A stretch of 64,000 nt of DNA from Candidatus Bathyarchaeia archaeon (GTDB taxonomy: Archaea; Thermoproteota; Bathyarchaeia; Bathyarchaeales; Bathycorpusculaceae), in assembly GCA_049521795.1 (NCBI GenBank), contig JBEKOM010000001.1:1-64000 (forward strand). Direction: 5' to 3'. The notes beneath the pieces were generated by a model. That model was not told the origin of the DNA, did not search any database, and saw only the letters and a program-made list of their open reading frames with translations. The translations under genes and the position numbers were made by a program. Of the stretch, positions 54,321 through 61,289 are shown one piece after another; the first letter of the stretch is position 1; each line of letters starts with the position of its first letter.

Positions 54321-57017
54321 ATGACGCAGAAGACACAGAAACACTTGGAGGATTTTCCATCCAAGGAACGCAAACCTTCGACTGAAAAGAAAGTTGACTC
54401 TGGGCCGTTGGCAATCGGAGAGCATGGAAAGAGAGAAGGGAGAAGACGCGTCTTTCCCCCGCTTGCTCCTGAGAACTTGCCATGTTCATACTTTGTCTCA
54501 GCCACTTATGACGGAAGGGCTGGCAAGGCAGTAATCAAACTCTATGAACCGATTTCGGGTCAGATCTACTTCTGGTATGACAACACAGGCCACCAACCCT
54601 ACTGTCTCACAAACCTTTCGCAGTACGAGCTTGAAAAAATCAGCCGTGTAATTCAACACCCAGGCTTCGACCGTTTTGAGATTGTGGAAAAATTTGACCC
54701 GCTGCTAGACAGGAAGGTGAAGGTCACGAAAATAGTGACCAAAGATCCGTTGGCTATCGGCGGCCGACCCTCGGGATGCATTAGAGACATTATTCCAGAG
54801 GATTTCCCAAAGGTCTCTGACGCGCCAATTGTCCCAGAAGAAATCAAAGTCTGGGAATCAACGATAAAGTATTACCAATCCTACATTTACGACCGGCAAC
54901 TTCTGCCCGGAATGATTTACGAGATACGAGACTGCAACCTCGTCCTGAAAAGGCTCGAAGAAGCCGACAAGACCGTGTGTCAGATTCGAGGAACCTTCAA
55001 GGACTCGACTGATGAAGAGTTGGAATTCATCGAAGAATGGGCTAGACTGCTGGAATACCCTGCTCCCAAGTTTCGCCGCGTGGCCCTCGACATAGAAGTG
55101 TTGGCCCCTATCTCCACGAGAGTACCTGACCCCCGGGAAGCGGCTTGCCCCGTTATATGTGTTTCACTATACGGTTCAGATGGACTGAAGAAAGTCTTGC
55201 TCCTGAAACGCGAGGGAGTCCGCGAGGGCACGGAGCACCTGTGCGCGGATGTGGAGCTTGAAAGTTTTGATTCTGAGGACAAACTCATAAGTTCTGTTCT
55301 TGACGTGTTGTGGGAATATCCTTTCGTCCTGACTTTTAACGGGGACGACTTTGACCTTCAATACTTGTTCCACCGTGCTCTGAACCTTGGCATCAGACGA
55401 AGCGAGATCCCAATAGAAGTTGGAAAGAGATCCTGCTTGCTGAGTTATGGAGTTCATCTTGACCTTTACAAGTTTTTCTTCAACCGTTCAATTCAGATTT
55501 ATGCTTTCAACAACCGTTACAGAGACGTGACGCTGAATGACGTTGGAAAAGCTCTGATCGAACTTGAAAAAGTGCCACTTGACAAAACTTTAGGCGAGTT
55601 AACTTACACAGAGCTTGCCGAGTATTGCCTCAGAGACTCTGAAATCACTTTCAAACTTACAAGTTTTGAAGACGAACTCGTCATGAAGCTGATCCTAGTC
55701 CTTGCAAGAATCAGCAGCATGCCGATGGAAGACGTGAGTCGACAAGGCGTCTCTCGCTGGATACGAAACTTTCTGCAACGGGAGCACCGCAAGAGGAACA
55801 TGCTCATCCCGAGTCCCCAAGACATACTGGCGACGAAGGGCAAGACCGCAACGAAAGCAATCATAAAGGGCAAGAAATACAAGGGAGCAATAGTCGTCGA
55901 GCCTGTGCCAGGAGTTTACTTCAACGTTGCTGTTATGGATTTTCCAAGCCTGTACCCGTCAATCATCAAGGTGTGGAACCTGGGCTACCAGTCCATATTG
56001 TGTCCGCACCCGGAATGCCGCGGCAACGTCGTTCCAGGCACGCCAAACTGGGTTTGTACTAGGAAACGAGCGTTAGAGAGCTTGTTGATCGGTTCTTTGA
56101 GAGACTTGCGTGTGCAGTGGTACAAGCCTAAGACGAAAGACAAGTCTCTCAGCGCTGATTTGAGAAGCTGGTACAACATCACTCAGGGAGCTCTTAAAGT
56201 CATACTGAACGCGAGCTACGGCGTCTTCGGAGCCGAAAGCTTCGACCTCTACTGCCCACCAGTGGCTGAGGCAACGGCGGCCATCGGAAGACACTCAATA
56301 ACGCGGATACTCAACAAAGCAGAGGAGCTGAGTATCCAGGTGCTCTACGGAGACACGGACAGCCTCTTCCTGAAAAACCCTTCAAAACAGCAAACTGAAG
56401 AACTGGCGCACTGGACAGAACACGAACTTAAAATGAGCTTGGACGTTGACAAGGTTTACAGGTATGCCGTTTTCAGCTCTCGCAAAAAAAACTATCTCGG
56501 AGTCTTTGAAGACGGCGCAGTTGACGTCAAAGGATTAACAGGCAAGAAGAAACACATTCCAATTCTCATCAAGAAAGCCTTCGACAGAATGAAGGACTCT
56601 CTCGCGAAAGTCAAAACTCCGACAGACTTTGAAGAGGCAAAAAAAAGCATCTGCGAAATTGTCCTCGAATGCTACATACAGTTGAAGAGGCGAGAATGGG
56701 AAAACCTACGTGAATTGGCATTTAACGTAGTCTTAGGTGAAGATATCGAGCACTATACGAAGACAACTCCTCAACATGTCAAAGCCGCTAAGATTCTGCA
56801 GAAGAATGGGGCAGAGCTGAGAGCTGGCGACCTCATAAGCTTCGTTAAGACGACCAGAGAGCCAAACGTGAAACCAGTCGAGTTGGCAACCAAAAACGAG
56901 GTTGACGTTGACAAATACGTAGCTTACCTACGTTCGACGTTTGACCAAGTCTTGGACGCGCTGGGTCTGGACTTTGACGAAATAATAGGATTAACAAAAC
57001 TGGAAAGATTCATGTGA
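54321..57017 (+). CDS. polB: Family B DNA polymerase (PolB1 type)
   Basis: Exo DIE, FNGDDFD; polymerase DFPSLYPS, KVILNASYG, YGDTDS, KKNY. Confidence 0.96.
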   Translation: MTQKTQKHLEDFPSKERKPSTEKKVDSGPLAIGEHGKREGRRRVFPPLAPENLPCSYFVSATYDGRAGKAVIKLYEPISGQIYFWYDNTGHQPYCLTNLSQYELEKISRVIQHPGFDRFEIVEKFDPLLDRKVKVTKIVTKDPLAIGGRPSGCIRDIIPEDFPKVSDAPIVPEEIKVWESTIKYYQSYIYDRQLLPGMIYEIRDCNLVLKRLEEADKTVCQIRGTFKDSTDEELEFIEEWARLLEYPAPKFRRVALDIEVLAPISTRVPDPREAACPVICVSLYGSDGLKKVLLLKREGVREGTEHLCADVELESFDSEDKLISSVLDVLWEYPFVLTFNGDDFDLQYLFHRALNLGIRRSEIPIEVGKRSCLLSYGVHLDLYKFFFNRSIQIYAFNNRYRDVTLNDVGKALIELEKVPLDKTLGELTYTELAEYCLRDSEITFKLTSFEDELVMKLILVLARISSMPMEDVSRQGVSRWIRNFLQREHRKRNMLIPSPQDILATKGKTATKAIIKGKKYKGAIVVEPVPGVYFNVAVMDFPSLYPSIIKVWNLGYQSILCPHPECRGNVVPGTPNWVCTRKRALESLLIGSLRDLRVQWYKPKTKDKSLSADLRSWYNITQGALKVILNASYGVFGAESFDLYCPPVAEATAAIGRHSITRILNKAEELSIQVLYGDTDSLFLKNPSKQQTEELAHWTEHELKMSLDVDKVYRYAVFSSRKKNYLGVFEDGAVDVKGLTGKKKHIPILIKKAFDRMKDSLAKVKTPTDFEEAKKSICEIVLECYIQLKRREWENLRELAFNVVLGEDIEHYTKTTPQHVKAAKILQKNGAELRAGDLISFVKTTREPNVKPVELATKNEVDVDKYVAYLRSTFDQVLDALGLDFDEIIGLTKLERFM

Positions 57018-57023
57018 ACGTTG

Positions 57024-57578
57024 CTACTTGTTTTCAGTGACCACTCTTAGGCCCCTAGACTTTAGAGGCTCAATAAAGCCTTTCCTGCTTAACACTGAAA
57101 GCAATAAGTAGCCAATTCCTGCTAACACAATTAAGCTGCTAATGGTCAAACTTACAACCATCGCAGCCCACGCTGGCAAGACGCTGAGAACCTGTGGAGG
57201 CTGAAAGTCGAAAACCAGCCAAAGGTAGCTGCCAACGATGAGGCCTATCGGAAGGGCCCCAAGAACACAAGCAGCGAACCGATGCTTCCTCAGAAGCAAT
57301 ATAACCATTGCCGCAATCAGATTTGCAATCGGCCCAATGACAACATCTTGAACTCCTATAAAGTAATAGGCGTTTGTCAAAAAACAGCCCAGCGTCACGC
57401 CTGCGCCGATTGGCCACCCCAGTAGCGCAACGAGAGGAATGAGACAGTCTGCGAGGCGCAACTGAACTGGCCCATATATCGTCGGGTTGCCAACTGAAAC
57501 CATCTGAAGAACGTTGATGACAACATACAAAGCAGCGAAAACGCTTGCCAACACTAAATCTCTGGATTCAATTCTCAA
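57024..57578 (-). CDS. queT: QueT-family (7-deazaguanine precursor) ECF S-component
   Basis: A.VFAALYVV...YGPVQLRLAD.L..L...GVTLGCFLTN...D...G. TTG start at 57578 with SD GGAGG 7-8 nt upstream. Confidence 0.8.
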   Translation of the reverse strand: MRIESRDLVLASVFAALYVVINVLQMVSVGNPTIYGPVQLRLADCLIPLVALLGWPIGAGVTLGCFLTNAYYFIGVQDVVIGPIANLIAAMVILLLRKHRFAACVLGALPIGLIVGSYLWLVFDFQPPQVLSVLPAWAAMVVSLTISSLIVLAGIGYLLLSVLSRKGFIEPLKSRGLRVVTENK

Positions 57579-57650
57579 TCTTTCTGCCTCCCTCGCCCGG
57601 GGTTTACTAAGGCGGAACGGGTGGAGGCCCACTCACCCGCCTAAGGCCTA
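57579..57650 (-). promoter_or_regulatory. Structured 5' leader of queT, candidate riboswitch; promoter tttaataa at about 57666-57673
   Basis: Stem GCGGGUG/CACCCGU; loop GCCUC complementary to SD GAGGC; intervening stem CGCCU/GGGCG. Confidence 0.45.
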
Positions 57651-58023
57651 AGAACACCACAGATCTTTATTAAACATTCCTGAGACTCACACGCTCGCGC
57701 TCGTCAAACGAGCTTTGACAATTGAAAAAGTGGCTCTTACAATTAATAGACATCAATGGTACTCGCTCAAAGAAGTCTGGAAGATAGGCGTGTCGGACTA
57801 GGAAAACAGCCCACGTAGCTCCGCATCCAACCTGAACAACCTCACCGTTTTCAACAACGCTTGCAAAGTGTATATACAAAACGTATATACAAAATGTATA
57901 TGCTTTCATTTTCACTTTTTTTGCGAATTTGGAGGATAAGCCCGCGCGGTGTACGTGGAAAATTTATGGGTGACGCATGAACGTCTGGAGGCTGCTTGAA
58001 AATGCTTTTCAAACAGTGCTACT

Positions 58024-58893
58024 TCATGTTAAGAGCCTGAGGGCGAGAGCAAGGGACGTTGATGCTGCAACAAGGACCGAGACGAGCAAGACAGCCTGAC
58101 GCTCGGTCAGAGGCCGATGAAACGTGAGAAGAGTGAGTAGGCTTCTTCTGTGATCTGAAGACAGTCTTTTCCCATCAAAAGAGAGACTCGCCTTGGTCCG
58201 GTAGATAAAGAAGGTCAGCAGTATCAGCGCAGAATTGAAAATGTACGGCAGAACAGACACGACTAAGTCCAGCTTTATCTCGGATATGATCCCGAAAGAA
58301 GCCAAAGTCATCCCAATGGCGAAGGATCCTGTGTTGCCAACGAAGATCTTTCCTTCAAAATTCAAGAAAGCAAGGATGAGCCATACGGCCAAGGGAACGT
58401 AAAGCAGGACTCCGTTTGACCCTGACATAGCCATCAACCCTATCATGACTATTGCCGGACACACCGTTTCCAAACCGTTCAGCCCCCCCAGCTGATTCAC
58501 CGTATTCGTAACTATCGTGACGAGCACCGGAATTATCACATAGTAGTACCACACCCCGAAGTCAATAGTGCCGAGCAACGGAATCGCCATAGACGTGCGA
58601 ACTCCAGGAGTGTAAAACGCAAAGGCCGCAAGAGGCAACGCAACGACAAGCGGAAGAAACGCTTTAAAACGCCACTTCAGATCCATCCAGTCATCCAGCA
58701 ACCCCATGAAGCCGCCGAACAGCACGCACACGGCCAACGTCAAAGGCGGAGAAACCCCGTTTGAGGCCTTGACTATGTTCAGAGAGTACAAGAGAAACAG
58801 GTACACGACACTGGTCAGAACGTAGACGATGCCTAGGCCATTAGGAACCAAAGGCTTGTTTGGCTTGTGCTGGTCAGGAGCCCTAGGAAGCAA
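58024..58893 (-). CDS. UDP-GlcNAc:dolichol-phosphate GlcNAc-1-P transferase (GT4/MraY family, AglH-like)
   Basis: D.HKP...VP..LG, GLLDD, NTVNQLGGLNGLE, IFVGNTG; immediately downstream of aglB. Confidence 0.82.
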   Translation of the reverse strand: MLPRAPDQHKPNKPLVPNGLGIVYVLTSVVYLFLLYSLNIVKASNGVSPPLTLAVCVLFGGFMGLLDDWMDLKWRFKAFLPLVVALPLAAFAFYTPGVRTSMAIPLLGTIDFGVWYYYVIIPVLVTIVTNTVNQLGGLNGLETVCPAIVMIGLMAMSGSNGVLLYVPLAVWLILAFLNFEGKIFVGNTGSFAIGMTLASFGIISEIKLDLVVSVLPYIFNSALILLTFFIYRTKASLSFDGKRLSSDHRRSLLTLLTFHRPLTERQAVLLVSVLVAASTSLALALRLLT

Positions 58894-58907
58894 AGACGTT
58901 CCCCTTT

Positions 58908-61154
58908 CTAAGCATTCGGATAATCTTGGTAGTACTTTTGCCAGTCGATTTTGTAGAGGCACACAAGTGGCACAAGCCCGCCGTAATTGCTCTGTGAGGC
59001 AGTGGGCGTCAAGGTCTCACCTGAGAAGAACTCTTCCGTAAAGTACGTAGGCTGAGTAACGTTGCCAGCGTCAGGGTCGCTAACGCTGTTGACCGTACAC
59101 CAACGGTCTTTTCCCCAGCTCATCAACTTGTACACCGTTGAGTTTAATCCAACGCTGTTCCACACCCACGCGTTAGTCGTGTTGTCGAACGCGCCGAACG
59201 TGGTCTCATTTTGCCAGGAAGAGGCCTGGTCGATAAGGTTGTTACTTATGAACCGTTGTTGCGCGTTTCCGGAAATCTTTGCCATCCAAGTCCACTTTCC
59301 GTTGTCGCCGCCCGCCCAGTCAACCCAGCTTCCCTGGTAGCTAAAAGTGTCGAACACAAGTATGTATTGCGCGTCGTATTTCTTCAGCATGTTCACCGAA
59401 TAAGTCTCGTTTGCCATAAAGATGAACCCAAGATTCTCTATCTGCGTACTGTTAATCGTGGCGTTGTCGGCAATCGTGGTGACGTTTCCCAGGAAGGTCA
59501 GCCAGTATCCGTAGTCCCACCAACTGACCACAACGGTGGAAGAGCTTTGGAAGTCGTTCAGGTATTTCAGCATGTCGAACCACTGTGTGACAGGCTGATT
59601 GGGCGTCACCGAAAGACTGCCTCCGGTGACCGTGACTGGCTGGTAAGCTTGTCTGTAGACTGTAGGTACACCGCCAGATTGTGGCGAAAATGCTAGGTTT
59701 GTCATCAGAACTATGAATATTAGGAAAATGGCAACTCCGCTGAACTCTTTTCCCACGTGCTCCAGAGCTCTTCTTTTTCCAGCCAATCTCGGCGGTTCCT
59801 TCAACAAGGTCACAAACGGTTTTGACATGCCCACTATTCCTACAGCCGCGACAAGAGCGAACGCAGGAGCCAAAATGACCATCAAGCGCACCTCTGAAGC
59901 AGCGAAGTAAACGGTCGTCAAAGCAAAGAGCAGCATGAAGAGATTCTTATTCGTAAGGTTCCTTGCAAGAAAGAATAGACCCACGCCAAAGAAGAGTATC
60001 GCTATGCCAAGGTCGTAGTACATTGAACCCCAAGAAGATATCCTGTGTTCAGCCACAGACTCTATTAGCGCGACATCCCCTCGCAGGTACGGATTTAGAA
60101 CCGTAAGGATCTTTCCAGATATGCGCGTCATGTAACCGGACAACGTGAGCACGGTGAAACTGCCGATTATTCCCGCTACGAACACCACGACAAACATGAA
60201 CTTTTCCCTGGCGGAGGTCAGGTTGTTGATGATCTCGTTCAGACAAAGAAGACCGAAGACTGCTGCAACAGGCAAGATGGCGGACGTAACGGCGAAATCG
60301 GTTGTGATTTCAGTTCGGGTGCTCATAGCAAAGAGGAGACTCGGCCCGAAAGTCAAACCATAAACCAAAAAGAGGCGCCGCGAGTATCTCTTAAGCAGGA
60401 GCAACGCGAAAACGAAGAGCGCGGCCAGGTCTATCGGATAGTATGACGCGCCCCATCCAAGAACGAAGTAAGTTAAGGCGACGCCTGATCCAAGTGAGTA
60501 TGCAACTGTTGAACCTATCGGCCTTTCTTCATCAACGGCCCTTAGGAAGAAAAGAATGAAGGCTGGGAGCGCAACGATGCCAACGTTTTCGGTGGTAAAG
60601 AAGCCCAGCGTAATCTTGGTGATGACAGCGGGGCTTATCGCCAAGAAGAGGGCCGCAAGCAAGCCGACAGGTTTTCCTCCCAAGTCCTTTCCAAGGAAAT
60701 AGAGTATTAAAGCGCCGAGCGCGGCCATTATTGGAGGCAACAGCGCCAAGAAGGCCATCAAGTCGAAGTTAACGCCCAAGAACGTCACGATTTCGTAAAG
60801 GACAGACCCAACGAATGGCAACCCAGGGAGAGACACCCCCATGTTTATACCGTCTGGGTACCAGCGCTGCTTGTCAACCCATTGCGTAGGCCAGTAGGGC
60901 GACAGCAAACCATGAGTCGTCATCTCCTTCGCAAGACTGTACTGATAGTACGGGTCAAACTCCGAAAGATGAATTGTCCCTAATTGTATCTCCCAACGAA
61001 GCGGCAGCACACGTATGGTGAAAGCCAGGAGGAGGACGAGCAGCAAGGCCGAAGAAGTTAAGATTTGAGTATGGTTTACTTTGGGTCGCAGTTTTCCTAG
61101 GCTCTTTATGCCTTTGACAAGACTCTCTCTTGATAGGACGCTGCTGAGCTTCAC
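58908..61154 (-). CDS. aglB: Oligosaccharyltransferase AglB (STT3)
   Basis: EFDPY, SVAEH, WWDYG, ADNAT; many TM helices. Start GTG 61154 is inferred (ORF extends to 61214). Confidence 0.95.
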   Translation of the reverse strand: MKLSSVLSRESLVKGIKSLGKLRPKVNHTQILTSSALLLVLLLAFTIRVLPLRWEIQLGTIHLSEFDPYYQYSLAKEMTTHGLLSPYWPTQWVDKQRWYPDGINMGVSLPGLPFVGSVLYEIVTFLGVNFDLMAFLALLPPIMAALGALILYFLGKDLGGKPVGLLAALFLAISPAVITKITLGFFTTENVGIVALPAFILFFLRAVDEERPIGSTVAYSLGSGVALTYFVLGWGASYYPIDLAALFVFALLLLKRYSRRLFLVYGLTFGPSLLFAMSTRTEITTDFAVTSAILPVAAVFGLLCLNEIINNLTSAREKFMFVVVFVAGIIGSFTVLTLSGYMTRISGKILTVLNPYLRGDVALIESVAEHRISSWGSMYYDLGIAILFFGVGLFFLARNLTNKNLFMLLFALTTVYFAASEVRLMVILAPAFALVAAVGIVGMSKPFVTLLKEPPRLAGKRRALEHVGKEFSGVAIFLIFIVLMTNLAFSPQSGGVPTVYRQAYQPVTVTGGSLSVTPNQPVTQWFDMLKYLNDFQSSSTVVVSWWDYGYWLTFLGNVTTIADNATINSTQIENLGFIFMANETYSVNMLKKYDAQYILVFDTFSYQGSWVDWAGGDNGKWTWMAKISGNAQQRFISNNLIDQASSWQNETTFGAFDNTTNAWVWNSVGLNSTVYKLMSWGKDRWCTVNSVSDPDAGNVTQPTYFTEEFFSGETLTPTASQSNYGGLVPLVCLYKIDWQKYYQDYPNA

Positions 61155-61289
61155 TCTTGGTTCATCTCTTACACACAGTTCTTGGAGGTGTTTTATTTTC
61201 CTTGCGGTTAACAACGTCTACGGAAGTGTTCAGATGAGAAGCGCCGTTCATATAAGCCTTTCCGACCCTCAAACAACCTGAAACAGACG

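Follow-up and report, generated by a model that had tools for sequence, protein, structure and literature searches.

A candidate 7-deazaguanine riboswitch class that would sequester the Shine-Dalgarno sequence of archaeal queT genes

The stretch of DNA analysed here (the window; 64,000 nucleotides (nt), positions 1 to 64,000 of contig JBEKOM010000001.1, assembly GCA_049521795.1) derives from a Candidatus Bathyarchaeia archaeon and carries a queT gene whose leader contains a conserved RNA element, which looks like a candidate for a new class of Shine-Dalgarno (SD)-sequestering 7-deazaguanine riboswitch. Features lie on the minus strand unless marked (+). A preQ1-II-like riboswitch had been proposed at this site before, and the transcript-sense string quoted in that original prediction is identical to the minus strand of 57650–57576. 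The regulated gene, the queT coding sequence (57024–57578; 184 amino acids), was identified by a Pfam profile search (PF06177, E = 1.4e-21; 77.7 bits, with the cut-off at 33.7) and has homologues in 52 of the 61 related genomes searched. The longest version of its open reading frame (ORF), with 202 amino acids, starts at GTG 57632, which lies inside the RNA element, and the Pfam profile begins only at residue 26 of this version. Homologues align from residues 1–5 of the N-terminus set by the TTG at 57576–57578 (from residues 1–3 in 29 of 30 loci), and in relatives the stretch of open frame 5' of the queT match is of freely varying length, from 0 to about 90 codons. Because of these alignments, the variable upstream frame and the position of GGAGG (57591–57587) 8 nt 5' of the TTG, we conclude that the real start of queT is TTG 57578 and not GTG 57632, a point on which the earlier proposal of a leader RNA had depended.

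A leader of about 65 nt (57641–57586) precedes queT in each of 30 loci taken from the 61 related genomes; in 28 of them it adjoins the matched gene, and in the other two it stands before a second queT paralogue of the same locus. Its 31-nt hairpin is 85–100% identical to that of the window in 26 relatives (mean 93%), compared with 47–74% (mean 62%) for the QueT proteins of the same relatives, and an identical hairpin occurs in two relatives with a QueT protein identity below 50%. The first helix of the element, P1, comprises five base pairs (bp) between GGCGG (57637–57641) and CCGCC (57611–57615); it is predicted by RNAalifold and both strands covary. Among 100 deliberately diverse sequences, the outer pair is GC in 62, AU in 20, CG in 4, GU in 4, UA in 3, UG in 2 and unpaired in 5, and the inner pair is GC in 98 and CG in 2. 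Among 128 pattern-derived sequences, the outer pair reads GC in 108, GU in 7, UA in 6, AU and CG in 2 each and otherwise in 3, with an invariant inner pair. The three middle pairs are also invariant, which is uninformative as they are fixed by the search pattern and the model. The covariation score of P1 was matched by 0 of 500 shuffles, and slid registers pair in 29–65% of cells as opposed to 99.2% for P1 (100 sequences). From this covariation we conclude that the 5-bp P1 is part of the conserved fold. The same strands had been presented as a competing pairing (UAGGCGG/CCGCCUU) that could free the SD sequence; the GGCGG/CCGCC helix at its core is real, but it is the covarying main stem and not a competitor.

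The second conserved helix, S2, joins the loop closed by P1 to the ribosome-binding site. Its upstream, anti-SD strand (S2a, 57618–57628) consists of the loop GCCU and the 3' strand CCACCC of an alternative hairpin, P2, plus a junction G, and its downstream strand (S2b, 57586–57599; CGGG...GGAGGC) holds the SD sequence GGAGG and covaries with S2a. In the window, GCCUCC/GGAGGC and CCCG/CGGG together form 10 bp with a duplex energy of −15.6 kcal/mol (duplexfold). The pairing of a hairpin loop with the SD sequence in a pseudoknot, a central element of the original prediction, is therefore upheld, and the helix is longer than claimed. Across 184 unique instances of the element, the predicted S2 duplex ranges from −10.9 to −21.8 kcal/mol (median −16.05) and reaches at least 8 bp in 182. 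When partners were swapped between sequences, the mean energy went from −16.36 kcal/mol for native pairs to −14.81 kcal/mol, with 0 of 2000 swaps as low as the native value; with a single sequence per S2a type (n = 68), the corresponding values were −16.26 and −14.41 kcal/mol, with 0 of 5000 swaps as low. The two strands change together in many lineages, and independent compensatory replacements of both strands include UUCCGAC/GUCGGAA, CCACC/GGUGG, GCCCCCU/AGGGGGC, CCCUCCU/AGGAGGG, CUUCCAC/GUGGGAG, CUCGCA/UGCGAG and UUCGCA/UGCGAA. An added C is matched by an added G (CCUCCC/GGGAGG) and an added U by an added A (CCUCCU/AGGAGG), and the base 5' of CCUCC changes together with the base 3' of GGAGG (G-C, G·U, A-U, U-A). 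Since several of these replacements are no longer SD-like, the constraint on S2 is one of pairing between the two strands and not of pairing with 16S rRNA. Judged from the order of the strands in the sequence, P1 and S2 would together form an H-type pseudoknot.

Four of the instances (L213, L214, L190 and L181) carry a downstream S2 strand that does not resemble an SD sequence (GUCGGAA or GUCGG). An ATG follows within 1–2 nt of the S2 strand in L213 and L214, the start of the ORF picked is further off in L190, and L181 has no ATG nearby. The arrangement in L213 and L214 suggests occlusion of the start-codon region in mRNAs devoid of an SD sequence.

The junction between P1 and P2 (J1/2, 57635–57636) reads GU in all 171 parsed instances (three of them parsed one register off, with the GU field shifted) as well as in the divergent and Asgard ones, an invariance that is favoured by the search pattern and the model. 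The first pseudoknot loop (L1) consists of this GU plus 2–9 nt, and the second (L2 or J2/1, 57616–57617) is UU in the window, AU or CU in some relatives and longer in two Asgard members. The third loop (L3, 57599–57610) starts with a variable, A/U-rich linker and ends in an A-rich/C-rich tail, AAACCCC (57605–57599), which is retained as AAAYCMC by every group, even where the GG following it is lost. Several partners for the tail were tried and rejected, with no consistent covariation for any of them: GGGU at the border of P1 and J1; a register-shifted pairing of GUU/GAU with AAC/AUC; GUG or GUGA of J1/2, which fits CAC variants only; and the 5' strand of P2, which fails where the last G of that strand varies. 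In a hand count, 10 of the 11 sequences with U before CCG also had A after CGG, a suggestive link that represents few independent events and is partly explained by S2. The RNA as a whole is small, at 42–70 nt.

Most members can form the alternative hairpin P2 within the loop closed by P1. Its 5' strand GAGUGG (57629–57634), which contains GTG 57632 and would be part of L1 in the pseudoknot state, pairs with CCACCC (57619–57624) with one A·C mismatch and the loop GCCU (−4.7 kcal/mol in the window). The hairpin shows U-A to C-G swaps and length covariation and is predicted at −4 kcal/mol or below in 151 of the 184 instances. P2 and S2 share a strand and are mutually exclusive; S2 is universal, P2 is not. 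Formation of P2 would leave the SD sequence free.

A TATA box, TTTAATAA (57667–57674), is located just upstream of the element, as had been noted before. Position-wise base composition relative to the first base of P1, compiled for the 169 loci with enough upstream DNA, shows that it is part of a general pattern: A+T content is 0.72–0.89 from −35 to −27, peaks at 0.79–0.89 from −32 to −28, and an A-rich stretch precedes. Applying the spacing usual between archaeal TATA boxes and start sites, we predict that transcription starts at about 57642–57646, i.e., 1–5 nt 5' of P1. With the conserved TATA peak some 30 nt 5' of P1, the element would start the transcript. The 5' flank AGGCC of the window is unconserved among relatives and probably falls at or before the transcription start; the competing pairing AGGCC/GGCCU that had been suggested on its basis is hence abandoned. 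The SD sequence and start codon follow the element directly, and a scan for sigma-70 promoters and terminators, which is unsuited to archaea, found no terminator-like site at the locus.

The distribution of the element was investigated by a degenerate pattern scan covering one genome per prokaryotic species and by a covariance model (R1) built from 128 non-identical instances. The pattern scan yielded at least 120 stretches, and 104 of the 120 listed carry the motif. Carriers among the first 80 listed are mostly Bathyarchaeia (one is the genome of Candidatus Bathyarchaeum tardum, L047), with some Nitrososphaerota/Nitrososphaerales, one Methanomethylicota and one Asgard archaeon (Promethearchaeati). 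The remaining 16 of the 120 are GC-rich and lack the anti-SD sequence, the SD sequence and the TATA box; 10 of them come from bacterial records, and all were taken for bacterial or chance matches. These stretches score at most 22.7 bits with R1 (15 of 16 at most 13.2 bits), compared with 57.6–88 bits for the scored pattern-derived archaeal members. Among the matches listed, the element was thus seen only in archaeal records. The covariance model found one copy in the genome of the window, matches in 93 of 151 sampled genomes of the same class (Bathyarchaeia; 72 of the 95 of high quality), in 28 of 151 drawn from the whole phylum, and in 23 of 121 from the phylum to which the Asgard record belongs (E ≤ 2.2e-7 in 10 of the 23). 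Outside the class, matches are concentrated in few families, and zero were found in several other families among the 151 genomes sampled across the phylum. The genome sets are samples, and the relatives in them are mutually dependent. The weakest R1 match (L189, G119:C2:367230-368150; 21.4 bits) overlaps, on the opposite strand, a sequence resembling a tRNA and was dropped as a false positive, as was L188 (23.9 bits).

The expectation that orthologous leaders would be conserved and covary is borne out by the presence of the leader in all 30 loci and by the covariation of both P1 and S2. Given its recurrence with compensatory changes in these loci and in hundreds of genomes, the element is almost certainly a real cis-regulatory structured RNA, as had been proposed for the queT leader. 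This assessment draws on the comparative signal, which sets the element apart from chance, while thermodynamics alone are uninformative.

Some genomes harbour two or three copies of the element, and some encode two queT paralogues with the element on only one (cases of one or the other kind are the loci L026 and L029, of G052 and G060, and the genomes G022, G110, G118, G119, G147, G170 and G252). The QueT proteins encoded behind it belong to several distinct subfamilies. At one locus (L024; G027:C2, ~90919–91453), queT is split by a frameshift or stop and substitutions in the leader weaken both P1 and P2. Gene and leader seem to have decayed together, which would fit relaxed selection, in a single anecdotal case.

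Genes downstream of the element were assigned for 173 unique instances outside the Asgard set. QueT-like proteins account for 156 by local hidden Markov model searches and for a further 8 by three-frame reading of loci with odd start codons or a wrongly picked ORF, and one more instance shows by eye a QueT-like start truncated by the contig end. Four instances precede radical-SAM genes whose best NCBIfam matches are QueE families (E 1e-25 to 1e-31), below the curated cut-offs, and one precedes queC (PF06508, 212 bits; TIGR00364, above cut-off). The remaining three (L143:5816-6541 (+), L139:883-1617 (+) and L070:5727-6557 (−)) are followed by membrane proteins of 242–277 amino acids without a Pfam or NCBIfam match. 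The proteins of L143 and L070 are 35% identical (E 4e-32), and the L143 protein is placed beside clusters named 'ECF transporter S component' in the ESM Atlas (0.93), which serves as a lead only. These membrane proteins are candidates for a new 7-deazaguanine transporter family. In the Asgard set, QueT-like genes follow 10 of 11 instances, and the eleventh is cut by a contig end. Since queE-like, queC and ECF-S-like (energy-coupling factor S component-like) genes occur behind the element besides queT, it marks a 7-deazaguanine regulon.

The genome that contains the window (98.75% complete) encodes an archaeosine-type TGT (283 bits), and searches of it returned no convincing QueC (best match 28 bits, in larger PP-loop proteins) or QueE (25 bits). 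As TGT is present and QueC and QueE matches are only weak, the organism probably imports a 7-deazaguanine. The neighbours of queT are a family-B DNA polymerase gene (54321–57017 (+)), convergent with queT, a gene for a glycosyltransferase family 4 protein (58024–58962) and one for a multi-pass membrane protein of 768 amino acids (58908–61214), the ORFs of the latter two overlapping by about 55 nt. None of these neighbours is tied to queuosine or archaeosine metabolism, and queT therefore appears to be monocistronic. An intergenic site (57869–57900 (+)) some 200 nt 5' of the TATA box, between the queT promoter and the glycosyltransferase gene, holds about 2.5 tandem copies of a GTATATACAAAA-like unit of 12–13 nt.

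Taken together, we consider it likely that the element binds a metabolite, and we favour, with some reserve, its interpretation as a new class of translational OFF riboswitch for preQ0 or a closely related 7-deazaguanine. Under this proposal, P1 would close a loop whose 3' part (CCUCC, AC, CCG) pairs with downstream CGG, GU and GGAGG to give an S2 helix of about 10 bp in which the ribosome-binding site is buried; most members could alternatively pair the 5' part of this loop with the anti-SD strand, forming P2 and freeing the SD sequence. The ligand would bind at the junction of P1 and S2, lined by GU, UU and AAAYCC, as these invariantly read residues must lie there in an H-type fold. Its binding would stabilise the pseudoknot over P2 and switch off translation of the transporter, and elsewhere the same element would switch off genes of preQ0 synthesis. 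Speculatively, strand invasion might find a toehold at the CGG:CCG end of S2 and at the mismatch that P2 has at its base. The simplest candidate ligand is preQ0, with which the archaeal pathway reaches its last free base and which ArcTGT inserts into tRNA; to our knowledge, most archaea lack QueF.

Several observations weigh against this interpretation or temper the evidence for it. The sequences compared are mutually related, and the results of shuffles and partner swaps are accordingly not probabilities; S2 was scored by a duplex-energy program and not by a pseudoknot-aware covariation test; and the search pattern, together with the model built from its matches, accounts in part for much of the invariance seen in the core. 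The region folds unexceptionally in the window (minimum free energy −28.6 kcal/mol, z = −0.30; equalled or bettered by 69 of 200 shuffles), by-eye pairing tests gave no convincing partner for the conserved AAACCCC tail, and the QueE assignments remain below threshold. In 23 of 184 instances P2 falls short of −2 kcal/mol and counts as weak or absent, and one Asgard member (L235) lacks it altogether. S2 is predicted to be far stronger than P2 (median −16 vs −5.3 kcal/mol), which could mean that the SD sequence is sequestered constitutively. Lastly, in the preQ1-I riboswitch, as described in sections of a 2024 review of the preQ1 family, a conserved C (in AC or UC) just before the 3' strand of P1 pairs with the ligand (PMC11625349); this C is absent from the archaeal element, which has GUU, GAU or GCU at this position in 171 of 171 parsed instances.

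Other modes of action were weighed as well. A structured leader without a ligand, i.e., a binding site for a protein or other trans-acting factor, or a pseudoknot that masks the SD sequence constitutively or in a temperature-dependent manner and thereby sets the level of translation, would account for the unexceptional folding energy, and S2 alone could do the masking. It would leave unaccounted for the near-invariance of unpaired GU, UU and AAAYCCC across Bathyarchaeia, Nitrososphaerota, Methanomethylicota and Asgard archaea, which is typical of a ligand pocket, and the recruitment of the element to non-homologous genes of one pathway, and we regard it as quite unlikely. An ON switch, in which the ligand stabilises a P1–P2 hairpin with a docked tail and so blocks the very stable S2, would fit a default OFF state and the high conservation of P2 and the junction in most members. 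Such a switch would have a product turn on the genes for its own import and synthesis, which is illogical, and the members with a weak or missing P2 mark the universal pseudoknot as the conserved functional fold; we consider this arrangement very unlikely. The same RNA and fold could also serve a different ligand: preQ1, guanine or another purine, archaeosine base, queuine, or an intermediate such as 7-carboxy-7-deazaguanine (CDG). While feedback of the end product preQ0 on queC and queE represents the simplest logic, the gene set (queT, queE-like, queC) indicates a pathway and not a single compound, no substrate is established for archaeal QueT, and bacterial preQ1 aptamers bind preQ0 too, according to parts of the 2024 review (PMC11625349). 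Overall we judge a different ligand to be unlikely.

Two alternatives concern the fold itself. The original prediction had drawn a main stem of seven pairs, GCGGGUG/CACCCGU, with an additional hairpin (CGCC/GGCG) inserted as in preQ1-II. This stem can be drawn in the window and its loop does pair with the SD sequence, but it shares its 5' bases with P1 and cannot coexist with it; GGCGG/CCGCC covaries, and two instances with a swapped inner pair (L174, L175) compensate P1 yet would break the stem. The inserted hairpin exists only in the sequence of the window and is unconserved, and the Rfam preQ1-II model finds no match here, so that the fold as originally drawn is scarcely credible. That the conserved stretch is no RNA element at all but an N-terminal coding extension from GTG 57632, or chance, has practically nothing left to recommend it: the ORF does run from 57632, but the Pfam profile and the homologue alignments begin after TTG 57578, upstream frames are of arbitrary length, and nucleotide identity of 93% exceeds protein identity of 62%, with changes that are compensatory for pairing.

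In its widest form, the interpretation as a preQ0-sensing OFF switch would make the element the first riboswitch class confined to archaea, controlling import and synthesis of 7-deazaguanines through a pseudoknot that the ligand locks over the SD sequence, in Bathyarchaeia, Nitrososphaerota, Methanomethylicota and Asgard archaea, possibly old in the TACK–Asgard lineage, and marking the ECF-S-like family as transporters; we rate this as slightly better than an even bet. If true, archaea evolved metabolite-sensing RNAs of their own, with an abundant, archaea-restricted class devoted to the precursor of archaeosine, and a fourth independent RNA solution for the recognition of 7-deazaguanines would be available for comparing RNA–ligand recognition. 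It would also constitute direct evidence of SD-dependent translational control in mostly uncultured lineages, including Asgard archaea, and would aid the annotation of genes for preQ0 salvage, i.e., several QueT subfamilies and the new ECF-S-like family. The small size of the RNA and an obtainable candidate ligand make the question readily testable.

Comparison with known RNA families places the element outside all of them. No family of Rfam 15 matched at gathering score in the whole window. The models for preQ1-I (RF00522), preQ1-II (RF01054, the COG4708/queT motif) and preQ1-III (RF02680) gave no match at E up to 10 in 57500–57800 (301 nt) or at E up to 1 in 16 divergent loci, and the original suspicion of a variant or new class was therefore right. 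In the literature we found no archaeal leader motif for queT, preQ0 or preQ1, although the supplementary motif lists of large structured-RNA screens could hold one. The portions of the 2024 review drawn on here describe three preQ1 classes, in bacteria only, and leave archaea unmentioned (PMC11625349). According to sections of a 2017 survey, archaea use very few known riboswitch classes, mainly those for thiamine pyrophosphate (TPP) and fluoride, which they share with bacteria (PMC5473149). The element resembles these in being a cis-acting leader RNA of archaeal mRNAs, but the TPP and fluoride switches are bacterial classes found also in some archaea, whereas the element was seen only in archaeal records among the matches listed.

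Each of the preQ1 classes shares part of its design with the archaeal element. In preQ1-III, as outlined in that review, an anti-SD sequence in a hairpin loop pairs with the SD sequence downstream to form a nested H-type helix, P5 (PMC11625349), and pairing of an anti-SD sequence in a hairpin loop with a downstream SD sequence is a feature of the archaeal element as well; there, however, the anti-SD:SD helix forms half of the sole pseudoknot, whereas preQ1-III has a separate HLout aptamer of about 100 nt far from the SD sequence. The likeness to preQ1-II claimed in the original prediction is valid for its functional part, as both RNAs precede queT and hold the whole SD sequence (here GGAGG, 57591–57587) in a pseudoknot helix, but not for the architecture. 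preQ1-II is described in the same source as an HLout pseudoknot of helices P1–P4 with an inserted P4 hairpin, limited to Bacillota (PMC11625349), while the archaeal element is a plain H-type fold of P1 and S2 with an optional P2 that competes with S2. preQ1-II and preQ1-III have ten nucleotides of the ligand pocket in common. For preQ1-I, the review sections cited give a small H-type pseudoknot at the 5' end of que mRNAs, with five pairs in P1, a third loop rich in A and a second helix that involves the SD sequence or its immediate vicinity; in bacteria it controls queT, yhhQ and queCDEF, and it accepts preQ0 as well (PMC11625349). The archaeal element has in common with it the H-type fold, the 5-bp P1, here covarying, and the A-rich third loop, here AAAYCMC. 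It differs in its archaeal hosts, in a length of 42–65 nt compared with about 34 nt, in a second helix of 8–11 bp compared with 3–4 bp, and in a loop that holds the optional competing hairpin. As a conserved structured leader with covariation, found before genes of one pathway, the element shows the general hallmarks of a riboswitch, and its mode of action may by analogy resemble that of the translational switches of bacterial preQ1-I and preQ1-II.

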